20,608 nucleotides of DNA, from the IMG/VR virus record IMGVR_UViG_3300018494_000461; one strand, 5' to 3'. The first letter of the stretch is position 1, and every line of letters starts with the position of its first letter. Shown in pieces: positions 7,650 to 15,122 of this stretch. The position numbers were made by a program, and so were the translations under genes. The stretch comes from a virus. The notes beneath the pieces were generated by a model. It was given only the letters and a program-made list of their open reading frames with translations, ran no database searches and was not told the DNA's origin.

Positions 7650-7856
7650 TTACCTCCCATACATCGGCCACAGGTCAGAATATTTTCTTACACCATCGCC
7701 AATTTTAATCCAAAAATAATCCTCTGCGTGTATTCTAAAGCACCAAACTTCTCCTGGGTCTGGTACATCTTGGGAGTGGCTACATAGCCACTCCCCATAT
7801 TCTTCCATGCTCTGGAAATCAAACAGTTTCGGCCTCAGTATCCTCGTCCAGTCCAT
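7650..7856 (-). CDS. Hypothetical protein, 68 aa
   Basis: ATG at 7856 has RBS GGAGGAAGCAG but overlaps the last 38 nt of the RNA ligase gene. Its stop lies in the SD of the next gene. Confidence 0.35.
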   Translation of the reverse strand: MDWTRILRPKLFDFQSMEEYGEWLCSHSQDVPDPGEVWCFRIHAEDYFWIKIGDGVRKYSDLWPMYGR

Positions 7857-9237
7857 CTGCTTCCTCCATATCAGGAGCCTCGGCGTTCTCCTTGATGATG
7901 CCTTCCAGCACCTTGAACTGGAAGTTCTTGTGCTTATAGGCGGTGAAAGTAGGACGATTGATTACACGAACTACGACGCCCTCACGGATGTGAGTAGGGT
8001 CAATAGGCTCTTCACCATCGTAGAACTGTTCTGCCTTATTCAAGACCCATTCACCGGCAGAGATAGTGTCATCTTCCTTGGAACCAGGATTCTCGGGAAT
8101 GAAGCCATACCAGTGCAGAGGAACGGTCTTAACACCCATGTACATACAACGATGACGCATCTGGTCAGGAGTGTACTCTACAACCTCGCCATCCTCGTTA
8201 GTCATGGTCATACGATATACATAGATATCGTTCTTGTGGTAGAAGGGGATGCGGTTTACAACATCACCTTGCTCATTGAACTCAAGTTCGTACTGAACAC
8301 CAGGAGCGCAGCCGTAAGAGAAAGTAGTAGTCTCGCCATACTTCTTTACGAACTCCTTATCGTTCAGCTTCTTGTTGTTACATACGCCCATAATAGGCTG
8401 ACCCTCGTGAGTGAAGCCAACAATCTCGTAGTAGACAGTCTCGCCCTTCAGCAACTTGCCCTCAAAGAAATCGTGATAAGGCTTACGGAACTCATTAGAG
8501 CCGTAGAAACCACCATCAAAAGTATCCAGAACAGTGCGGCGAGTACCAGATACATAACCCCAATCGTAGATAGGAGTGCCCTCACGACGCAGGATAATAT
8601 CCAGTAAAGTACGCTTAAAGCCCTTCAAAACCTTGGTATGAGAAGTACGAGCGGAAGTTCCGTGGAGCTTACGAGTAATCTCAATCAAGTCACCAGGCTT
8701 AAACACATGTAGGTTGTAAGCCAACTGCTCAGTATCAATGTGCTCATAGAACACAGGTGCGATAGAGCGCTTTGCCTTACGCTTTGCGCGCTTACCAGCA
8801 CCGCCGGCCGCAGTTGCCTGATGCTTGCTGCGAGGAATGTACTTACGGCAGATTTCATGTCCATTCACAGTAGTGATGGAGTCGCCGATATTCAAGGAGT
8901 CCATATCTACGCCAGTGTAGGCGAGACAAGACAAAGGTAGGAACAGACCATCAGACTGCTCACCACGCAGCTTAATTGCCTTTACATTTCTCTTAGCGGG
9001 GTCCATATAGCCGCCGGAAACATTCTTTCCGTTCTCATATACAGCCAAAAGACCGTTCTTCTGACAAAACTCCATAGACAGCTGCAGGTCTACGGGGAAA
9101 TATACACCAATCTCGCCCTCGGTGTACTTATCCTTTGCGACGCAGACAGTATTTACAAAGCAGGTTGCCAGAACCAGCTTATCTGCGTTAGGATGGGGAC
9201 GTACATCCTTCAAAGTAGTTACATATCCACAATGCAT
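7819..9237 (-). CDS. ATP-dependent RNA ligase with an N-terminal tRNA-binding (OB-fold, Myf/EMAP-like) domain, 472 aa
   Basis: N-terminal HPNADKL..V motif of the tRNA-binding domain. Ligase nucleotidyltransferase motifs: I KLHGTS (compare T4 Rnl2 KIHGTN), III YYEIVGF, IV EGVVVRV, V KHKNFQFK. RBS GAAAGGAG. Confidence 0.8.
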   Translation of the reverse strand: MHCGYVTTLKDVRPHPNADKLVLATCFVNTVCVAKDKYTEGEIGVYFPVDLQLSMEFCQKNGLLAVYENGKNVSGGYMDPAKRNVKAIKLRGEQSDGLFLPLSCLAYTGVDMDSLNIGDSITTVNGHEICRKYIPRSKHQATAAGGAGKRAKRKAKRSIAPVFYEHIDTEQLAYNLHVFKPGDLIEITRKLHGTSARTSHTKVLKGFKRTLLDIILRREGTPIYDWGYVSGTRRTVLDTFDGGFYGSNEFRKPYHDFFEGKLLKGETVYYEIVGFTHEGQPIMGVCNNKKLNDKEFVKKYGETTTFSYGCAPGVQYELEFNEQGDVVNRIPFYHKNDIYVYRMTMTNEDGEVVEYTPDQMRHRCMYMGVKTVPLHWYGFIPENPGSKEDDTISAGEWVLNKAEQFYDGEEPIDPTHIREGVVVRVINRPTFTAYKHKNFQFKVLEGIIKENAEAPDMEEADGLDEDTEAETV

Positions 9238-9575
9238 AGCACATTCTCCTTTCTAATTCCATTTTTTGTATTATCTCTATCTTCCCAGACAGATTCTCTG
9301 ACATATACGACAGGAGAAACCTTTTTATTTTCTCTCCAGTAGTCAGCAACATAAGAATCTCCCTGGCAACCATGAGGGGGAGTAATCCAGGGCCATTCGG
9401 GGTTTTCTGCGACCGCAGTCGCAAAATCGTCTTCATCTTCCTTTGTAGGCGTATACAATTCCACAACTTCAATACGACTATCGCATTCATCGGTTTCAGA
9501 ATAGCTAAAAACGGGAGCATCCTGGGGCATCTTCTGCAAAGCAGAAATCAAATCAGCAACGGTAGTATATCTCAT
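9219..9575 (-). CDS. Hypothetical protein, 118 aa (paralog A of a tandem pair)
   Basis: RBS AAGGAGAG. ATGA overlap with the upstream gene. Shares TVxDLxxxLxxxPxxxPxF and GCxGDxYVxDYWxE blocks with 9572-9853. Confidence 0.5.
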   Translation of the reverse strand: MRYTTVADLISALQKMPQDAPVFSYSETDECDSRIEVVELYTPTKEDEDDFATAVAENPEWPWITPPHGCQGDSYVADYWRENKKVSPVVYVRESVWEDRDNTKNGIRKENVLCIVDM

Positions 9576-9853
9576 TCGTGTCTCTCCTTATATGTCTGTT
9601 CACGCAGGCAAAGGAAAATTGTATTTCCATGTTCCTGCCAATAATCTTCAACATTACAAACTCCCTTACAGTAATAAGGGGAAGAAGGAATAATATTCCC
9701 TCCATCATCGGGGTTAAGCTGCGGCCCAGCCAACTCAAGAACTTCCAGGTTGGAATCTCGCTCTTTATCTATATCATAGAAAAAGATAGGTAATTCTGGC
9801 GGGAAAACCGCCAACTGCTTCATCAGCTCTCCGACCGTCATAGTCTTAGTCAT
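9572..9853 (-). CDS. Hypothetical protein, 93 aa (paralog B of a tandem pair)
   Basis: ATG at 9853 follows AAGGAGGAAGCTA and lies just after the exonuclease stop. The longer track ORF starting at 9961 would overlap the exonuclease gene. Confidence 0.5.
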   Translation of the reverse strand: MTKTMTVGELMKQLAVFPPELPIFFYDIDKERDSNLEVLELAGPQLNPDDGGNIIPSSPYYCKGVCNVEDYWQEHGNTIFLCLREQTYKERHE

Positions 9854-10754
9854 TAGCTTCCTCCTTAGCGGCGGCCGCAATTGCTCCCTCGGGAGAATAC
9901 TCCCAATAGCAATTATAACGGCACTTTCCAGTCTGAGGAGCGGCCTTGACCGCAGCCTCAATCTTTCTTACAGAGTCAGCGTTCTTAGGACTGACATTGC
10001 GGGCGATGTACTTGATAACCCACAAAGCAGCGGTGTTGAAATCGTTGAAATACTTTGCCTGACCGCTATGTTGGTCGACGCACTTGAGCATCCAATGATT
10101 TTCATCAGCGCCAGTTTCTGCTTCCCACTTAGGCTGAGAATTCCACTTCTGGAAAACCGCAGGAGCCTTTTTGCCGATATGGGGACGAGGCTGAGAAGGC
10201 ATAGCCAGAATAGTTTCCTTATCTTCGGGCTTACACTTATCATACAAGTGAGCCACAACGGTTTCAAGCATACGAGCGTCTTCCAGAGCATCATGCTTCT
10301 GAACCAGTTCTTTCTGCTCCTGGATAAGCATATACACCTTACGAAGAGCCAGGTCGTTCTTTGCGACGAAGAACTTCTTCACCACAGATGCGTAGTCAAT
10401 TAGATTGCCTGCGATAGCCTGGGCGCAGACACAAGCCTGCGTATCGCTCATATGACGGAGTGTGGAATTGATAAATTCGGCATCCGAATTGCCGTAGACA
10501 TAATAGGCAGGAGCTTCACCGTCGCTATTGGCTTCAATGAAATCATACAGCATCTTGAACGCAGCATCTGCGTCCGGAGCTTCAGCCAGCATTTCATTGG
10601 TAATACCGGTCAGTTCGGTGATGAACTTATCGACCTTCTTTTTGTCGCCAGGCTTGACATATGTTTCAAATGTCTCACCCGTTCCAGCGACGCAGCCGAT
10701 ACTGATAATTCGATTTGAAAATCTCGTTGCCTCAAAGTCTAAGTAAAAATTCAT
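9846..10754 (-). CDS. DEDDh-family 3'-5' exonuclease (DnaQ-like fold) with a ~130-aa C-terminal extension of unknown function, 302 aa
   Basis: Exo I YLDFEAT, Exo II YGNSDAEFI, Exo III HDALEDARM. First gene after promoter copy 4. Confidence 0.8.
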   Translation of the reverse strand: MNFYLDFEATRFSNRIISIGCVAGTGETFETYVKPGDKKKVDKFITELTGITNEMLAEAPDADAAFKMLYDFIEANSDGEAPAYYVYGNSDAEFINSTLRHMSDTQACVCAQAIAGNLIDYASVVKKFFVAKNDLALRKVYMLIQEQKELVQKHDALEDARMLETVVAHLYDKCKPEDKETILAMPSQPRPHIGKKAPAVFQKWNSQPKWEAETGADENHWMLKCVDQHSGQAKYFNDFNTAALWVIKYIARNVSPKNADSVRKIEAAVKAAPQTGKCRYNCYWEYSPEGAIAAAAKEEAND

Positions 10755-10821: not shown

Positions 10822-10844
10822 AAGAGGGAGTTTAATCTCCCTCT
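10822..10844 (-). terminator. Intrinsic terminator: 8-bp stem AGAGGGAG/CTCCCTCT with loop TTTAAT, U-tract into the -35
   Basis: Hairpin at 10823-10844. The stop codon of the upstream 77-aa gene sits in its loop. Confidence 0.7.
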
Positions 10845-11065
10845 TCAATTTCTATCTCTGGATAAGCTGCAAGGTCAATATCAGCCAGTTCTTCAAGGTC
10901 TTCGATATCTCGTCCGATATCCTGGCTACATTGTTCCAGGAAGTCGTGACAAGACTCTCCATACCAGGTCCAGTTATCAACTCCACCTTGCTCTAATGCG
11001 CAACACTTATTTGCAGCATAGATTAGTTCTCTTAGCTCATCTTCTTTGATAATACGATATTTCAT
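10832..11065 (-). CDS. Hypothetical acidic protein, 77 aa, co-transcribed with the sigma factor
   Basis: Its start is 1 nt after the sigma factor stop. Cys-containing, Glu/Asp-rich C-terminus. Confidence 0.5.
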   Translation of the reverse strand: MKYRIIKEDELRELIYAANKCCALEQGGVDNWTWYGESCHDFLEQCSQDIGRDIEDLEELADIDLAAYPEIEIEEGD

Positions 11066-11066
11066 T

Positions 11067-11969
11067 TTATGCCATGGCCTCCTTTAGCATCTTCGCACGA
11101 ACAGGATTTCTGAGCTTACGGATAGCCTTATTTTCAATCTGGCGAATACGCTCCTTGGACAGGCCATAGTGCTGACCAACTTCCTCAAGAGTCATAGCCT
11201 TTTCGGCATCAATACCGAAACGCATCTTGAGAATTTCAGCTTCACGAGCGCCCAGAGTGTCAAATACCGCAGCGATAATCTGACTGTTCGCTTCACGGAT
11301 AATATTTGCCATAGGATTCTCTGCACTGTGGTCCGCAATTAGGTCGCCCATACAGGTTTCACCCTCATCATCAACGGGGGTGTCGAGAGAGGTAGTAGCC
11401 TGTGCCAGGTCCATAACAGTCTGGACCTTGTCCAGTTCAACGCCCATATGAGCCGCAATTTCCTTATCAGAGGGAGCTCTGCCGAGCTTCTGAGTGAGTT
11501 CCGCAGTTGCCTTCTTCACCTTAGACAGGAGTTCAACCATATTAGCAGGAATACGAATGGTACGAGATTGGTCGCCCAGTGCGCGAGAAATGGCCTGGCG
11601 AATCCAGTAAGTTGCGTAGGTAGAGAATCGGAAGCCCTTGGAGCCATCGTACTTTTCAGCCGCCTTAATCAGACCGAGATTGCCCTCCTGGATGAGGTCA
11701 AGCAGCGGCAAGCCGCAACCATAATACTTCTTCGCAACAGATACAACCAGAAGCAGATTGCACTCAACCAGAGTGTTTACCGCATCTCTGTCGCCTGCGA
11801 GAGCCTTAACAGAAAGTTCCTTCTCCTGGTCAAAAGACAGGCGAGGATGATTGCCAATAGACTTTAGATAAGCCTTAACACCATCCAGAACAACATTGGT
11901 ATCATAATCATAGGTCTCGTTCATTTCACGAGCATCTTCTTCCATAATCATAACTTCATTCTGTTCCAT
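11067..11969 (-). CDS. RNA polymerase sigma factor, sigma-70 family (regions 1.2 to 4.2), about 300 aa
   Basis: Region 2 [18 protein letters not shown] and [18 protein letters not shown]. Region 4.2 helix-turn-helix [27 protein letters not shown]. Likely start is the ATG at 11969 after GGAGAG. The track's longer ORF begins at a TTG. Confidence 0.9.
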
Positions 11970-12015
11970 TATGCACTCTCCTATCAAACTTTATCTTTTT
12001 TCATTTTCTATATAT

Positions 12016-12449: not shown

Positions 12450-13256
12450 TTACATTCCTTCCTCTATATAAATTACTTTATCAACATATTTGCGGTCCTC
12501 ACCTTTGAGAATCGGCATATCGTAGTCAATACCGGTTTCACGAGTCCAGGCAGTGCCACGCTTCCAACGAGTTGGAAAATCGTTCCAGTTGATACCTTTT
12601 TGCTCGTGGAGCATATCTTGGATTACGCTACAAGAGCAACCCTGGAGCTTACTGTGAGAGAAGAATGCCTGACCAACCATCTGAATGGAGTTGCGGGTTG
12701 CGTCAAGCTGGCGCCAGTAAATCAGATTACAGGCTTCCTCTTTGGGAATGTTGAACACGCGAGAGTCGAACATAGCACCAATAGATGCTTTCTCGCAGTA
12801 AAGACTATATAGCTTATCCTGCTGCTCCCACCATTCGGGGTCAGTGTGACGAGGGTCGCTCCACTGACGGCTACGCCAAGTACCAACTTCCTCGGCAAAA
12901 TATTTGTTGAACGCCATGGTTGCCATAGAAGCAGAGATAGAACACATCTTCTGTACTTCATAATCGAACCAGGCACTGGTATCGAGAGTCTGGTAGTCAA
13001 TCAACAGGAGAGTGATTTCGTCAGACTGGGTGTAACCGAAGACACAACCCTGGATATTTCTACACAGATGTTCCATGGTTTTTACCATCGCATTTCCCAG
13101 CACTTTATCGAAAGGCTTTTGGAAGCCACGAGTGAAAGTGTGGAAGGCTTTACCGTCGAGGCGAATTGCGACGGGCATTCGTCTCACCAAACGGGTTTTC
13201 GGCACCTGCTCGTAGAAAGTTTTCATACGAGTGCCAAGAGCATCATTCACTGGCAT
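12450..13256 (-). CDS. Thg1-like protein (tRNA-His guanylyltransferase family 3'-5' nucleotidyltransferase), about 268 aa
   Basis: Thg1 hallmarks VAIRLDGKAFHTFT (RxDGxxFxxF) and GYTQSDEITLL (SDE). The best start is the ATG at 13256 after GGAAGGAGAAGAGAAAAA. The track ORF extends to 13340. Confidence 0.85.
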   Translation of the reverse strand: MPVNDALGTRMKTFYEQVPKTRLVRRMPVAIRLDGKAFHTFTRGFQKPFDKVLGNAMVKTMEHLCRNIQGCVFGYTQSDEITLLLIDYQTLDTSAWFDYEVQKMCSISASMATMAFNKYFAEEVGTWRSRQWSDPRHTDPEWWEQQDKLYSLYCEKASIGAMFDSRVFNIPKEEACNLIYWRQLDATRNSIQMVGQAFFSHSKLQGCSCSVIQDMLHEQKGINWNDFPTRWKRGTAWTRETGIDYDMPILKGEDRKYVDKVIYIEEGM

Positions 13257-13486: not shown

Positions 13487-14227
13487 TCAACGACGAACTT
13501 CGCCAATTTTCTTACCTCCACGCTTAGCCTTACGCTTGGTAGCGTTATCAATGGTTTCACGATGGATAGTCTGAATTTTGGAAGCAAAACCAGACTTGAG
13601 GAATTGAGTGAAGTTCACAGGCTCCCAACCAATGACATCAGAGCAGACGTTCAGGTGGTTAGCTCTCTTATGACCGGCATGGTCATGACCATGGATGTTA
13701 AACAACCAAGGAATTTCCACAGGCTCATGAGTCAGAATCAACTTCTCACCAACGATGAGGGCACCCTCATACACCTCATCGAACAGCAGGTTGTCTGCAG
13801 TTGCGACCCAACGCTTAAAAGGAGCGTGAAACTCCCAAGACTCATTGATGGTAATTTTCCAATTATGGAAATACATTCTCATTTCAGCGAGAACTTCTTC
13901 CTTGGTGAACTTATCCTGGTCATAAACACGAGTAATGACCTTGCGCTTGTAGTTAGAAGCGCCGGCATCATGGTTACCCATAATCAGAACCTTATATTCA
14001 GCACGAAGCTGACGCACATACTCGATGTCACCAACGTCGCCCAGAATAACCAGACAGTCGCGGCGGCCGCACTTTGCGTTGATTCTCTTAACCTGCTCTT
14101 CGGCGGAAGGACGACCCTTAATGCCGCCGGCAAGTTCATCATCATTGAAGTGAGGGTCGGAATAAATCCAGACAGTCTGGTGCTTTTCGCCCCAGTGCTG
14201 GAAAGAATCATAGATACCAGCTAACAT
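13487..14227 (-). CDS. Calcineurin-like binuclear metallophosphoesterase, 246 aa
   Basis: DPHF, LGDVGD, GNHD and HGHDH motifs. RBS AAAGGAGG is 8 nt upstream. Confidence 0.8.
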   Translation of the reverse strand: MLAGIYDSFQHWGEKHQTVWIYSDPHFNDDELAGGIKGRPSAEEQVKRINAKCGRRDCLVILGDVGDIEYVRQLRAEYKVLIMGNHDAGASNYKRKVITRVYDQDKFTKEEVLAEMRMYFHNWKITINESWEFHAPFKRWVATADNLLFDEVYEGALIVGEKLILTHEPVEIPWLFNIHGHDHAGHKRANHLNVCSDVIGWEPVNFTQFLKSGFASKIQTIHRETIDNATKRKAKRGGKKIGEVRR

Positions 14228-14920: not shown

Positions 14921-15122
14921 AAACATACTCCTTATAACTTTTTGCGTAATCGGGAGCACAAATTTTTACCTCGAAATGGTCGTCGTCTATATCGCTGGAA
15001 TAGAATATTTCATGTAATGCCATTTGAATGTCATTTACATAATCTTCTAATTCATCTTCTGGAATGTCCTTAATTCTCATTACAAAATGAAATGGAATAA
15101 CAAAATCAGCATTTTTTGCCAT
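14910..15122 (-). CDS. Hypothetical acidic protein, 70 aa
   Basis: ATG at 15122 follows GGAGACTGATT and lies 13 nt after the phosphatase stop. The track ORF starting at 15281 would overlap the phosphatase gene. Confidence 0.45.
   Translation of the reverse strand: MAKNADFVIPFHFVMRIKDIPEDELEDYVNDIQMALHEIFYSSDIDDDHFEVKICAPDYAKSYKEYVYED

Follow-up and report, generated by a model that had tools for sequence, protein, structure and literature searches.

The stretch of viral DNA analysed here, referred to as the window, comprises 20,608 nt of the IMG/VR virus record IMGVR_UViG_3300018494_000461. It carries on its minus strand a gene for an RNA ligase of the Rnl5 type, which is accompanied by further genes with predicted roles in RNA repair (Table 1). 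The ligase gene lies inside a long run of genes on the same strand, with an AGGAG Shine-Dalgarno sequence 9 nt before its ATG, and overlaps its upstream neighbour by 19 nt and its downstream neighbour by 38 nt in an operon-like arrangement. An open reading frame (ORF) on the plus strand, at 7807-8607, was considered and rejected as a gene, since it is a shadow of the conserved ligase ORF. The source of the ligase is an uncultured large gut phage of ~190-200 kb; the identical protein is found on 17-19 metagenomic contigs, and its relatives are present on contigs of ~190-200 kb. A megablast search with the whole window against deposited phages gave no DNA match. In a single-protein scan of cellular genomes only eight loci with a ligase homologue were found (44-59% identity), several of them in Lachnospiraceae, a hint that the host is a gut member of the Bacillota. 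A homologue with 49% identity is carried by Scaffold1_1 (190,206 bp; L094) of the isolate genome assembly of Roseburia sp. 1XD42-69, and this scaffold, equal in size to the phage contigs, may be a phage genome that was co-assembled; it also gives a clue to the host.

The first-pass annotation, made from the sequence alone, described an RNA ligase with the motifs HPNADKL, KLHGTS, EGVVVRV and KHKNFQFK, and all four are present in the 472-residue ORF, together with YYEIVG as motif III. The ORF is matched by PHROG 968, annotated as RNA ligase, with an E value of 4e-68. The NgrRnl-type OB domain of Pfam (PF21189) exceeds its gathering score over residues 6-102, and RNA_ligase (PF09414) falls 0.5 bit short of its own over residues 185-429. 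Homologues with E <= 1e-3 amount to 2,491 representatives of 50% identity clusters, and a homologue is present in 381 deposited phage genomes, in the majority of which it is annotated as RNA ligase. In an alignment of 113 diverse homologues, which is the basis of all conservation counts given here, residues K190, E271, E419, K435 and K437 of motifs I, III, IV and V are invariant, and H192, H166, T169, R197, R233 and R251 are nearly so; the signatures HPNAD(K/R)L and RGxxSxG of the N-terminal domain are kept across the clade. The profile matches, the number of homologues and the invariance of the catalytic residues together mean that the observation is not due to chance, and the identification as an RNA ligase is upheld. 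Some homologues carry an intein a few residues past the motif I lysine, with an inserted Hint splicing domain and a LAGLIDADG endonuclease in two proteins of ~800 residues (P0125 and P0130), and with mini-inteins inserted after this lysine in two others of ~600 residues (P0138 and P0155).

The structure of the ligase predicted by AlphaFold2 (AF2) has a pLDDT of 92.8 and a pTM of 0.90. In a Foldseek comparison with the PDB, the best 13 matches are all to the RNA ligase of Naegleria gruberi (NgrRnl), over the full length (E ~1e-17, TM 0.7 on the target). They are followed by T4 Rnl2, trypanosome REL1 and Rnl3 enzymes, which match in the nucleotidyltransferase (NTase) domain only. The best matches in a viral structure library are gut-virome proteins automatically named after NgrRnl. 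A search of PDB sequences with the single sequence aligned NgrRnl over the N domain only (E 0.018), and the 113-sequence profile was needed to reach motif I. This profile aligns with NgrRnl from the N terminus through motif I (E 9e-10), pairing K190 with K170 and, within the OB domain, K132 with K121 and D50 with D53. In a second, weaker segment the REG of motif IV falls on the NgrRnl REG to which E312 belongs. In NgrRnl, K170 is catalytic and D172 is a ligand of the catalytic metal, while K121 and D53 contact the γ-phosphate of ATP and its metal (PMC7261155). The counterparts of the latter two are well represented in the clade, the position of K132 being occupied by Lys in 108 and that of D50 by Asp in 91 of the 113 homologues.

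The order of domains is also that of Rnl5. The OB domain precedes the NTase domain, and motif V leads into a single helix and a short tail, acidic and in part disordered (residues 439-472 in the AF2 model), with no C-terminal domain. The N-terminal OB domain is the module that defines Rnl5, and in the prototype enzymes its role in ligase adenylylation and nick sealing has been demonstrated (PMC4408790, PMC7261155). At the level of architecture and fold the assignment to Rnl5 is sound, since the profile alignment, the Pfam OB domain and the structural matches of the model all lead to NgrRnl; the first reading of the gene as having a DraRnl/NgrRnl-like architecture was therefore correct. Its wording that the OB domain is fused to the ligase was not, because this domain belongs to the family by definition and involves no extra fusion. 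A recent domain fusion was rejected for the same reason. On the whole, the initial interpretation is supported in part.

Within this common architecture the ligase differs from the characterised enzymes, NgrRnl (PDB 5COT) and DraRnl (DR_B0094), in several respects. It is only 14-23% identical to them, and is 472 residues long against ~340, the additions being extra NTase residues, a Lys-rich linker and an acidic tail. In the PF09414 alignment 245 ligase residues correspond to 159 profile positions, which places extra residues within the NTase domain. The linker is the sole internal stretch of low confidence in the AF2 model (pLDDT 55-83) and spans an eight-residue gap in NgrRnl; in the tail, E458 is almost invariant, and the final ~12 residues are modelled with low confidence and as partly helical. 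The HPNADKL signature, kept here, is absent from NgrRnl. NgrRnl R149 is not conserved and aligns with Q171, and NgrRnl R4 lies outside the aligned region. Alignment of the motif I lysine with the ligase KxDG had been named at the outset as a check: the lysine does align with K170, but the motif is KxHG, with His192 at the Asp position in the ligase and in 110 of the 113 homologues. KxHG is presumably also the functional motif I of T4 Rnl2, which would speak against a loss of activity here, although a literature search for the T4 Rnl2 His37 motif gave nothing. The NCBIfam equivalog of DraRnl (TIGR02306) matches residues 9-196 only, with E 6e-18 and 64.8 bits against a cut-off of 151.15, short of a match at the level of orthology. 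In view of the KxHG motif, Q171, the extra residues and this sub-cut-off score, the clade is a distant, mostly viral sister of the characterised Rnl5 enzymes.

These departures bear on whether the protein could have lost catalysis and act only by binding RNA or tRNA, for instance as a decoy for nucleases that target tRNA, and the altered motif I, the loss of the R149 equivalent and the RNA_ligase score just below cut-off could be read in that sense. Such a reading is highly improbable, however, as the residues of motifs I, III, IV and V that serve lysine adenylylation are invariant in 113 diverged homologues, indicating selection for catalysis, and inteins directly after motif I, as found in some homologues, are typical of essential active sites. 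A pseudo-enzyme was rejected on the ground of this invariance. The active site of the ligase is complete and conserved, and is set in a fold of the Rnl5 type.

The N domain had also been assigned to the Myf/EMAP/Trbp111-type tRNA-binding OB folds. Of the two profiles proposed for checking, RNA_ligase narrowly missed its cut-off, as described above, and tRNA_bind (PF01588) is not significant (E 0.14, 12.7 bits against a cut-off of 27, residues 84-104 only); matches to the profiles of PheRS-beta (E 0.12) and MetRS-C (E 0.78) are likewise below threshold. In structure comparison, on the other hand, the modelled domain shares its three-dimensional fold with tRNA_bind OB domains, so that the kinship holds at the level of structure. 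Compared to the OB folds of Trbp111, CsaA, PheRS-beta B2, MetRS-C and EMAPII, the N domain is embellished and under the Pfam threshold, and it is joined to a ligase active site and is predicted to contact ATP. Descent from Trbp111-type folds may add affinity for tRNA, and recognition of tRNA by the N domain would be a reasonable idea.

Table 1. Features of the window and of adjoining parts of the same phage, with the number of related loci (of 80) in which the gene occurs within 10 kb of the ligase
Feature	Position (nt)	Strand	Size or residues	Family matches and remarks	Loci (of 80)
Rnl5-type ATP-dependent RNA ligase gene	7819..9237	minus	472 aa + stop codon	PHROG 968; PF21189/PF09414; AF2 model + Foldseek	
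Ligase, N-terminal OB domain	8833..9237	minus	aa 1-135	HPNADKL nt 9175-9195 (aa 15-21); RGEQSDG nt 8947-8967	
Ligase, Lys/Arg-rich linker, OB to NTase	8743..8832	minus	aa 136-165	...GKRAKRKAKRS...; probably disordered	
Ligase, NTase (adenylyltransferase) domain	7888..8742	minus	aa 166-450	PF09414 aa 185-429	
Ligase, motif I KLHGTS	8653-8670	minus	aa 190-195	K190, predicted nucleophile	
Ligase, motif III YYEIVG	8416-8433	minus	aa 269-274	E271	
Ligase, motif IV EGVVVRV	7963-7983	minus	aa 419-425	E419	
Ligase, motif V KHKNFQFK	7912-7935	minus	aa 435-442	K435, K437	
Ligase, acidic C-terminal tail	7822..7887	minus	aa 451-472	NAEAPDMEEADGLDEDTEAETV; conserved DxEE character of the clade	
RlaP-type Pol-beta NTase, divergent	16471..17358	minus	295 aa	PHROG 388; GS...DxD motif; most tightly linked gene, within 600 nt downstream of ligase in 26 loci	65
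Calcineurin-type metallophosphoesterase	15106..15996	minus	296 aa	PF00149 E 1e-9; PHROG 1649; candidate 3'-end healing enzyme; typical order RlaP, phosphoesterase, ligase	34
Second metallophosphoesterase	13487..14227	minus	246 aa	PF00149 E 9e-6; PHROG 547; closest relatives only	4
Thg1-like tRNA 3'-5' nucleotidyltransferase	12450..13256	minus	268 aa	PHROG 4717 E 3e-83; PF04446 E 2e-28	23
cRec (cyclic-phosphate-processing receiver) domain protein	18639..19022	minus		PF20274 E 4.7e-18; typical order MVP, cRec, RlaP	21
DEDD (RNase T / DnaQ-like) 3'-5' exonuclease	9846..10754	minus		PF00929 E 8e-17; separated from ligase by two small genes; median -931 nt from ligase start	20
Polynucleotide kinase (PNK)					55
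Pnkp-like AAA_33 kinase	~13 kb downstream of ligase, same phage (L087:13963-15044, with phosphoesterase)		165 aa	BLASTP + NCBIfam	
T7 gp5.9-like protein (RecBCD-inhibitor family)	10832-11065	minus	77 aa	PF25708 E 2.7e-8	18
Sigma factor	11067-11987	minus			
Major vault protein (MVP) homologue	4560-7076	minus	838 aa	MVP_shoulder E 2e-23 + vault repeat; usual order MVP, cRec, RlaP, phosphoesterase, ligase	27
NAD-related set	1-4467	minus		NAMPT (start in 1-785), SIR2, YqeY, phosphoribosyl pyrophosphate synthetase, isochorismatase/nicotinamidase-like	
Further NAD-related genes	L087:7701-12512, beyond the window			NAD synthase, NADAR, AAA_28 kinase, cytidylyltransferase-like (NMNAT-like)	
Small ORFs downstream of ligase	7152-7856	minus	68, 83, 85 aa	no family match	2-3 each
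Small ORFs upstream of ligase	9219-9853	minus	118, 93 aa	no family match	2-3 each

The genes around the ligase provide candidates for other steps of an RNA-repair pathway. The 295-residue NTase gave no Pfam match by itself, being below threshold, and its family is assigned to RlaP because 24 of 32 members match PF10127 (best E 5.8e-8). The boundaries of the Thg1-like gene follow a 268-residue call made on a public contig (L001), the longest ORF reaching 13340. Searches of PDB sequences with the 295-residue NTase and with both metallophosphoesterases returned nothing informative. The cRec domain has been linked to RNA ligases before (PMC7824862). The DEDD exonuclease may, we infer, be part of the repair module.

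A search for a P-loop kinase among the ORFs of the window found none. The context beyond the window was read on public contigs carrying identical genes, and there, in the same phage, a small Pnkp-like kinase is encoded. It aligns over the entire kinase domain of a phage PNK (BLASTP E 2e-10), and its best NCBIfam match is the kinase domain of bacterial Pnkp (TIGR04075, E 3.6e-13). Its gene overlaps one for a 195-residue Metallophos_2 protein, which is followed by a gene for a 502-residue Band_7/flotillin-like protein, and the kinase and Metallophos_2 pair resembles the kinase-phosphatase half of bacterial Pnkp, split into two genes. Judged by family, candidates for a 3'-phosphatase or cyclic phosphodiesterase working with the ligase are thus the two calcineurin-type phosphoesterases and cRec in the window, and the Metallophos_2 protein beside the kinase.

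An array of ten tRNA genes lies upstream of the ligase, 3.6-8.8 kb past the high end of the window (L085:133-5341), and some of the tRNAs predicted there are longer than usual or odd in the anticodon loop. The array holds two tRNAs with a CUA anticodon (amber suppressors), which recur in five related loci (L023, L049, L051, L073, L077), and the 27 genes of the window end in TAA (21) or TGA (6), never in TAG; these observations hint at avoidance or recoding of TAG in this group of phages. The presence of the array has to be considered together with the possibility that the ligase serves the processing of phage RNA and not counter-defence, either by maturing or rearranging the transcripts of the array or by circularising or joining other phage RNAs. 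Arrays accompany the ligase in many relatives, the odd tRNAs would fit such a role, and the Thg1-like and RlaP enzymes could act in tRNA maturation. We nevertheless regard this role as distinctly unlikely, since linkage with end-healing PNK, phosphoesterases and cRec fits ends made by nucleases better, and the ligase is also found in loci and phages with no tRNA array nearby. Bacterial tRNA maturation is not known to require a ligase, which counts against it as well.

Linkage of the ligase with these genes was followed in 80 IMG/VR loci with ligases 55-83% identical, searched by tblastn with the window proteins and two annotated phage PNKs within 10 kb (Table 1). Two gene orders recur. In one of them the ligase is followed by RlaP and PNK, with or without Thg1. 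The other, to which the window belongs, runs MVP, cRec, RlaP, phosphoesterase, (sigma factor, exonuclease), ligase, and here a HAD-type PNK is located ~5 kb further on or is lacking in the flank. Of the 33 IMG/VR loci scanned for tRNA genes, 16 have an array of at least three upstream of the ligase, in the same orientation. The association extends to distant cultured phages with ligases of 28-45% identity. PNK adjoins the ligase in Bacillus phage vB_BcoS-136, where prs and NAMPT accompany it too, and in Microbacterium phage Yuma; in mycobacteriophage Whirlwind PNK, prs and NAMPT are within 4 kb of the ligase, and in an Alishewanella phage prs and nicotinate phosphoribosyltransferase adjoin it. 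Persistence of the linkage through at least two gene orders and deep divergence argues for functional coupling of the ligase with the repair genes.

The partners also speak to the specificity of the ligase. Rnl5 prototypes seal duplex nicks when the 3'-OH strand has at least two ribonucleotides, and DraRnl is protective against ionising radiation in Deinococcus (PMC5397189, PMC4408790), so that a general sealer of nicks in RNA-containing duplexes, such as ribonucleotide-terminated DNA nicks or RNA:DNA hybrids, might act here in replication or repair with no specificity for tRNA, in parallel to the radiation role of DraRnl. The DnaQ/RNase T-like exonuclease, just upstream of the ligase in the window and present in a quarter of the related loci, would suit this function, and an exonuclease is also near the ligase in Whirlwind and Yuma. 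The commonest partners, however, are specific for RNA (RlaP, PNK, the Thg1-like enzyme and the upstream tRNA arrays), replication genes are absent from the window, and a related Bacillus phage has a separate DNA ligase near its RNA ligase. A general nick sealer is accordingly an unlikely, though not far-fetched, description of this enzyme.

Taken together, the enzyme and its setting lead us to favour, with somewhat better than even confidence, a function as an active RNA ligase of Rnl5 architecture that performs the sealing step of a phage RNA-repair module, keeping usable those tRNAs that have been cut by host defences. By the mechanism of NgrRnl and the conserved residues, K190 would be adenylylated by ATP, with the OB domain (D50 and K132) holding the γ-phosphate and its metal in place for the in-line departure of pyrophosphate. 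AMP would then be passed to a 5'-phosphate, and attack by the 3'-OH end of an RNA would seal the break, the preferred substrate probably being a nick that base pairing holds together, as in a broken tRNA stem-loop. Ends that are not ready for ligation would be prepared by the other enzymes: the metallophosphoesterases and cRec could clear 2',3'-cyclic or 3'-phosphate ends, the Pnkp-like kinase encoded 13 kb away could phosphorylate 5'-OH ends, the RlaP-type NTase could restore lost 3' nucleotides, and the Thg1-like enzyme could rebuild 5' ends. Bacterial RlaP adds one or two nucleotides to damaged 3' ends of RNA and is needed to restore tRNA function (PMC12776372), and the scheme as a whole matches the repair logic laid out for the gene sets of jumbo phages (PMC7824862). 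The Thg1-like enzyme, the tRNA arrays and the descent of the OB fold point to tRNA as the most likely class of substrate.

Several points weigh against this interpretation. A kinase is not encoded in the window, and the closest relatives have none within 10 kb. The 80 loci come from related phages and cannot be counted as independent in phylogenetic terms. In motif I, His replaces the metal ligand Asp172 of NgrRnl, and Q171 takes the place of R149; the details of the active site may therefore differ from those of NgrRnl. The tRNA_bind profile is not significantly matched. The physiological role of Rnl5 has been called 'uncharted', apart from radiation resistance in Deinococcus (PMC5397189). 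Finally, the region also contains NAD-salvage genes and a RecBCD-inhibitor-like gene, so that the genes may in part be neighbours because they belong to a general counter-defence island, and not because they act in one pathway.

The MVP gene is located between the RNA-repair genes and the NAD-salvage genes, and its product matches rat and human MVP with E 2e-23 over residues 316-790. Phage MVPs were reported in a 2023 preprint, in which no linkage to RNA-repair genes was made, and human vaults, according to recent work, bind ADP-ribose at the shoulder and contain an NADase. The gp5.9-like gene has a homologue close to the ligase in the related loci as well (Table 1), and RecBCD inhibitors of the gp5.9 type can trigger OLD, a TOPRIM tRNase (bioRxiv 10.64898/2026.07.10.737580). 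The five small ORFs flanking the ligase are kept only in its closest relatives; two CxxC pairs in the 83-residue product suggest a zinc ribbon. The tRNA array is separated from the repair genes by further conflict-related genes (L085:5663-9198), which encode an EcoRI-like methylase, a GmrSD_N+HNH protein and a DUF2828 protein.

Some of these genes enter into a variant in which the ligase would need no partner enzymes. Since Rnl5 enzymes require 3'-OH and 5'-PO4 ends, the ligase could act with no healing step on nicks made by metal-dependent tRNases. We can speculate that a Trbp111-like OB domain recognises tRNA and that the ligase directly reseals the nicks of TOPRIM (PARIS/OLD) and PIN-domain (VapC) nucleases, with other genes of the island handling other damage to tRNA and MVP providing a compartment or scaffold for tRNA repair and NAD regeneration. 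We consider this combination quite unlikely.

The sealing of healed ends, which we prefer, has clear precedents. Rnl5 enzymes are known to seal 3'-OH/5'-PO4 nicks with RNA as the 3'-OH strand, and phage homologues of DraRnl were listed in 2015 (both PMC4408790). The phage ligases of PHROG 968 (for example Whirlwind gp87, LeBron gp85, vB_BcoS-136 gp191 and Yuma gp79) belong to the same family, with 28-45% identity over 95-98% of the length, and show the same linkage with polynucleotide kinase, prs/NAMPT and tRNAs. In contrast to those phages, the kinase here is not adjacent to the ligase, and the module is larger, including RlaP, Thg1-like, cRec and two metallophosphoesterase genes beside an MVP-like gene. 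A repair role for ligases of the Rnl5 type was thought at first not to have been described, which proved incorrect. A pathway for repair that combines Pnkp, RNA ligase and tRNAs was proposed for mycobacteriophages by Zhu et al. in 2004, as related second-hand in PMC3706429, which also gives the co-evolution of Pnkp, RNA ligase and tRNAs in mycobacteriophage clusters J, E and L. The idea was restated for LeBron in 2026 (PMC13148394), and in 2021 jumbo phages were described as having RNA-repair islands in which genes for RlaP, Thg1, cRec and calcineurin-like phosphatases adjoin NAD-salvage systems (PMC7824862). With phage DraRnl homologues, the Pnkp/ligase/tRNA pathway and RNA-repair islands all previously published, the ligase is not of a new kind. 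It is a divergent member of an already described family, whose annotation is already predicted by existing profiles and published surveys.

The logic of healing followed by sealing is that of T4 Pnkp and Rnl1 acting against anticodon nucleases, although the proteins are different. T4 Rnl2 is the next-best fold after NgrRnl, and the NTase domain of the ligase is of the Rnl2/REL/PF09414 type, but T4 Rnl1 and Rnl2 have C-terminal specificity domains and no N-terminal OB domain. T4 also relies on a single HAD-type Pnkp, whereas the healing activities here appear to be split over kinase, metallophosphoesterase and cRec genes. The kinase outside the window and the calcineurin-type phosphoesterase whose gene overlaps its own correspond in their healing chemistry to the pair found in the bacterial Pnkp/Hen1 system, where Clostridium thermocellum Pnkp combines kinase, metallophosphoesterase and Rnl4 ligase (PMC2190708). 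In the phage, by comparison, the components are separate genes, the ligase is of the Rnl5 and not the Rnl4 type, and no Hen1 methyltransferase was seen.

Ligases of the Rnl5 type have been without an established physiological substrate, and the phage clade offers a concrete setting in which one could be tested. Immunity by cleavage of tRNA is now known to be widespread in bacteria, with PARIS, retron-Septu, OLD, Cas12a3, RloC and others as examples. If the proposed role is true, many gut and soil phages would carry a multi-enzyme kit for tRNA repair built around a family of ligases other than that of T4.

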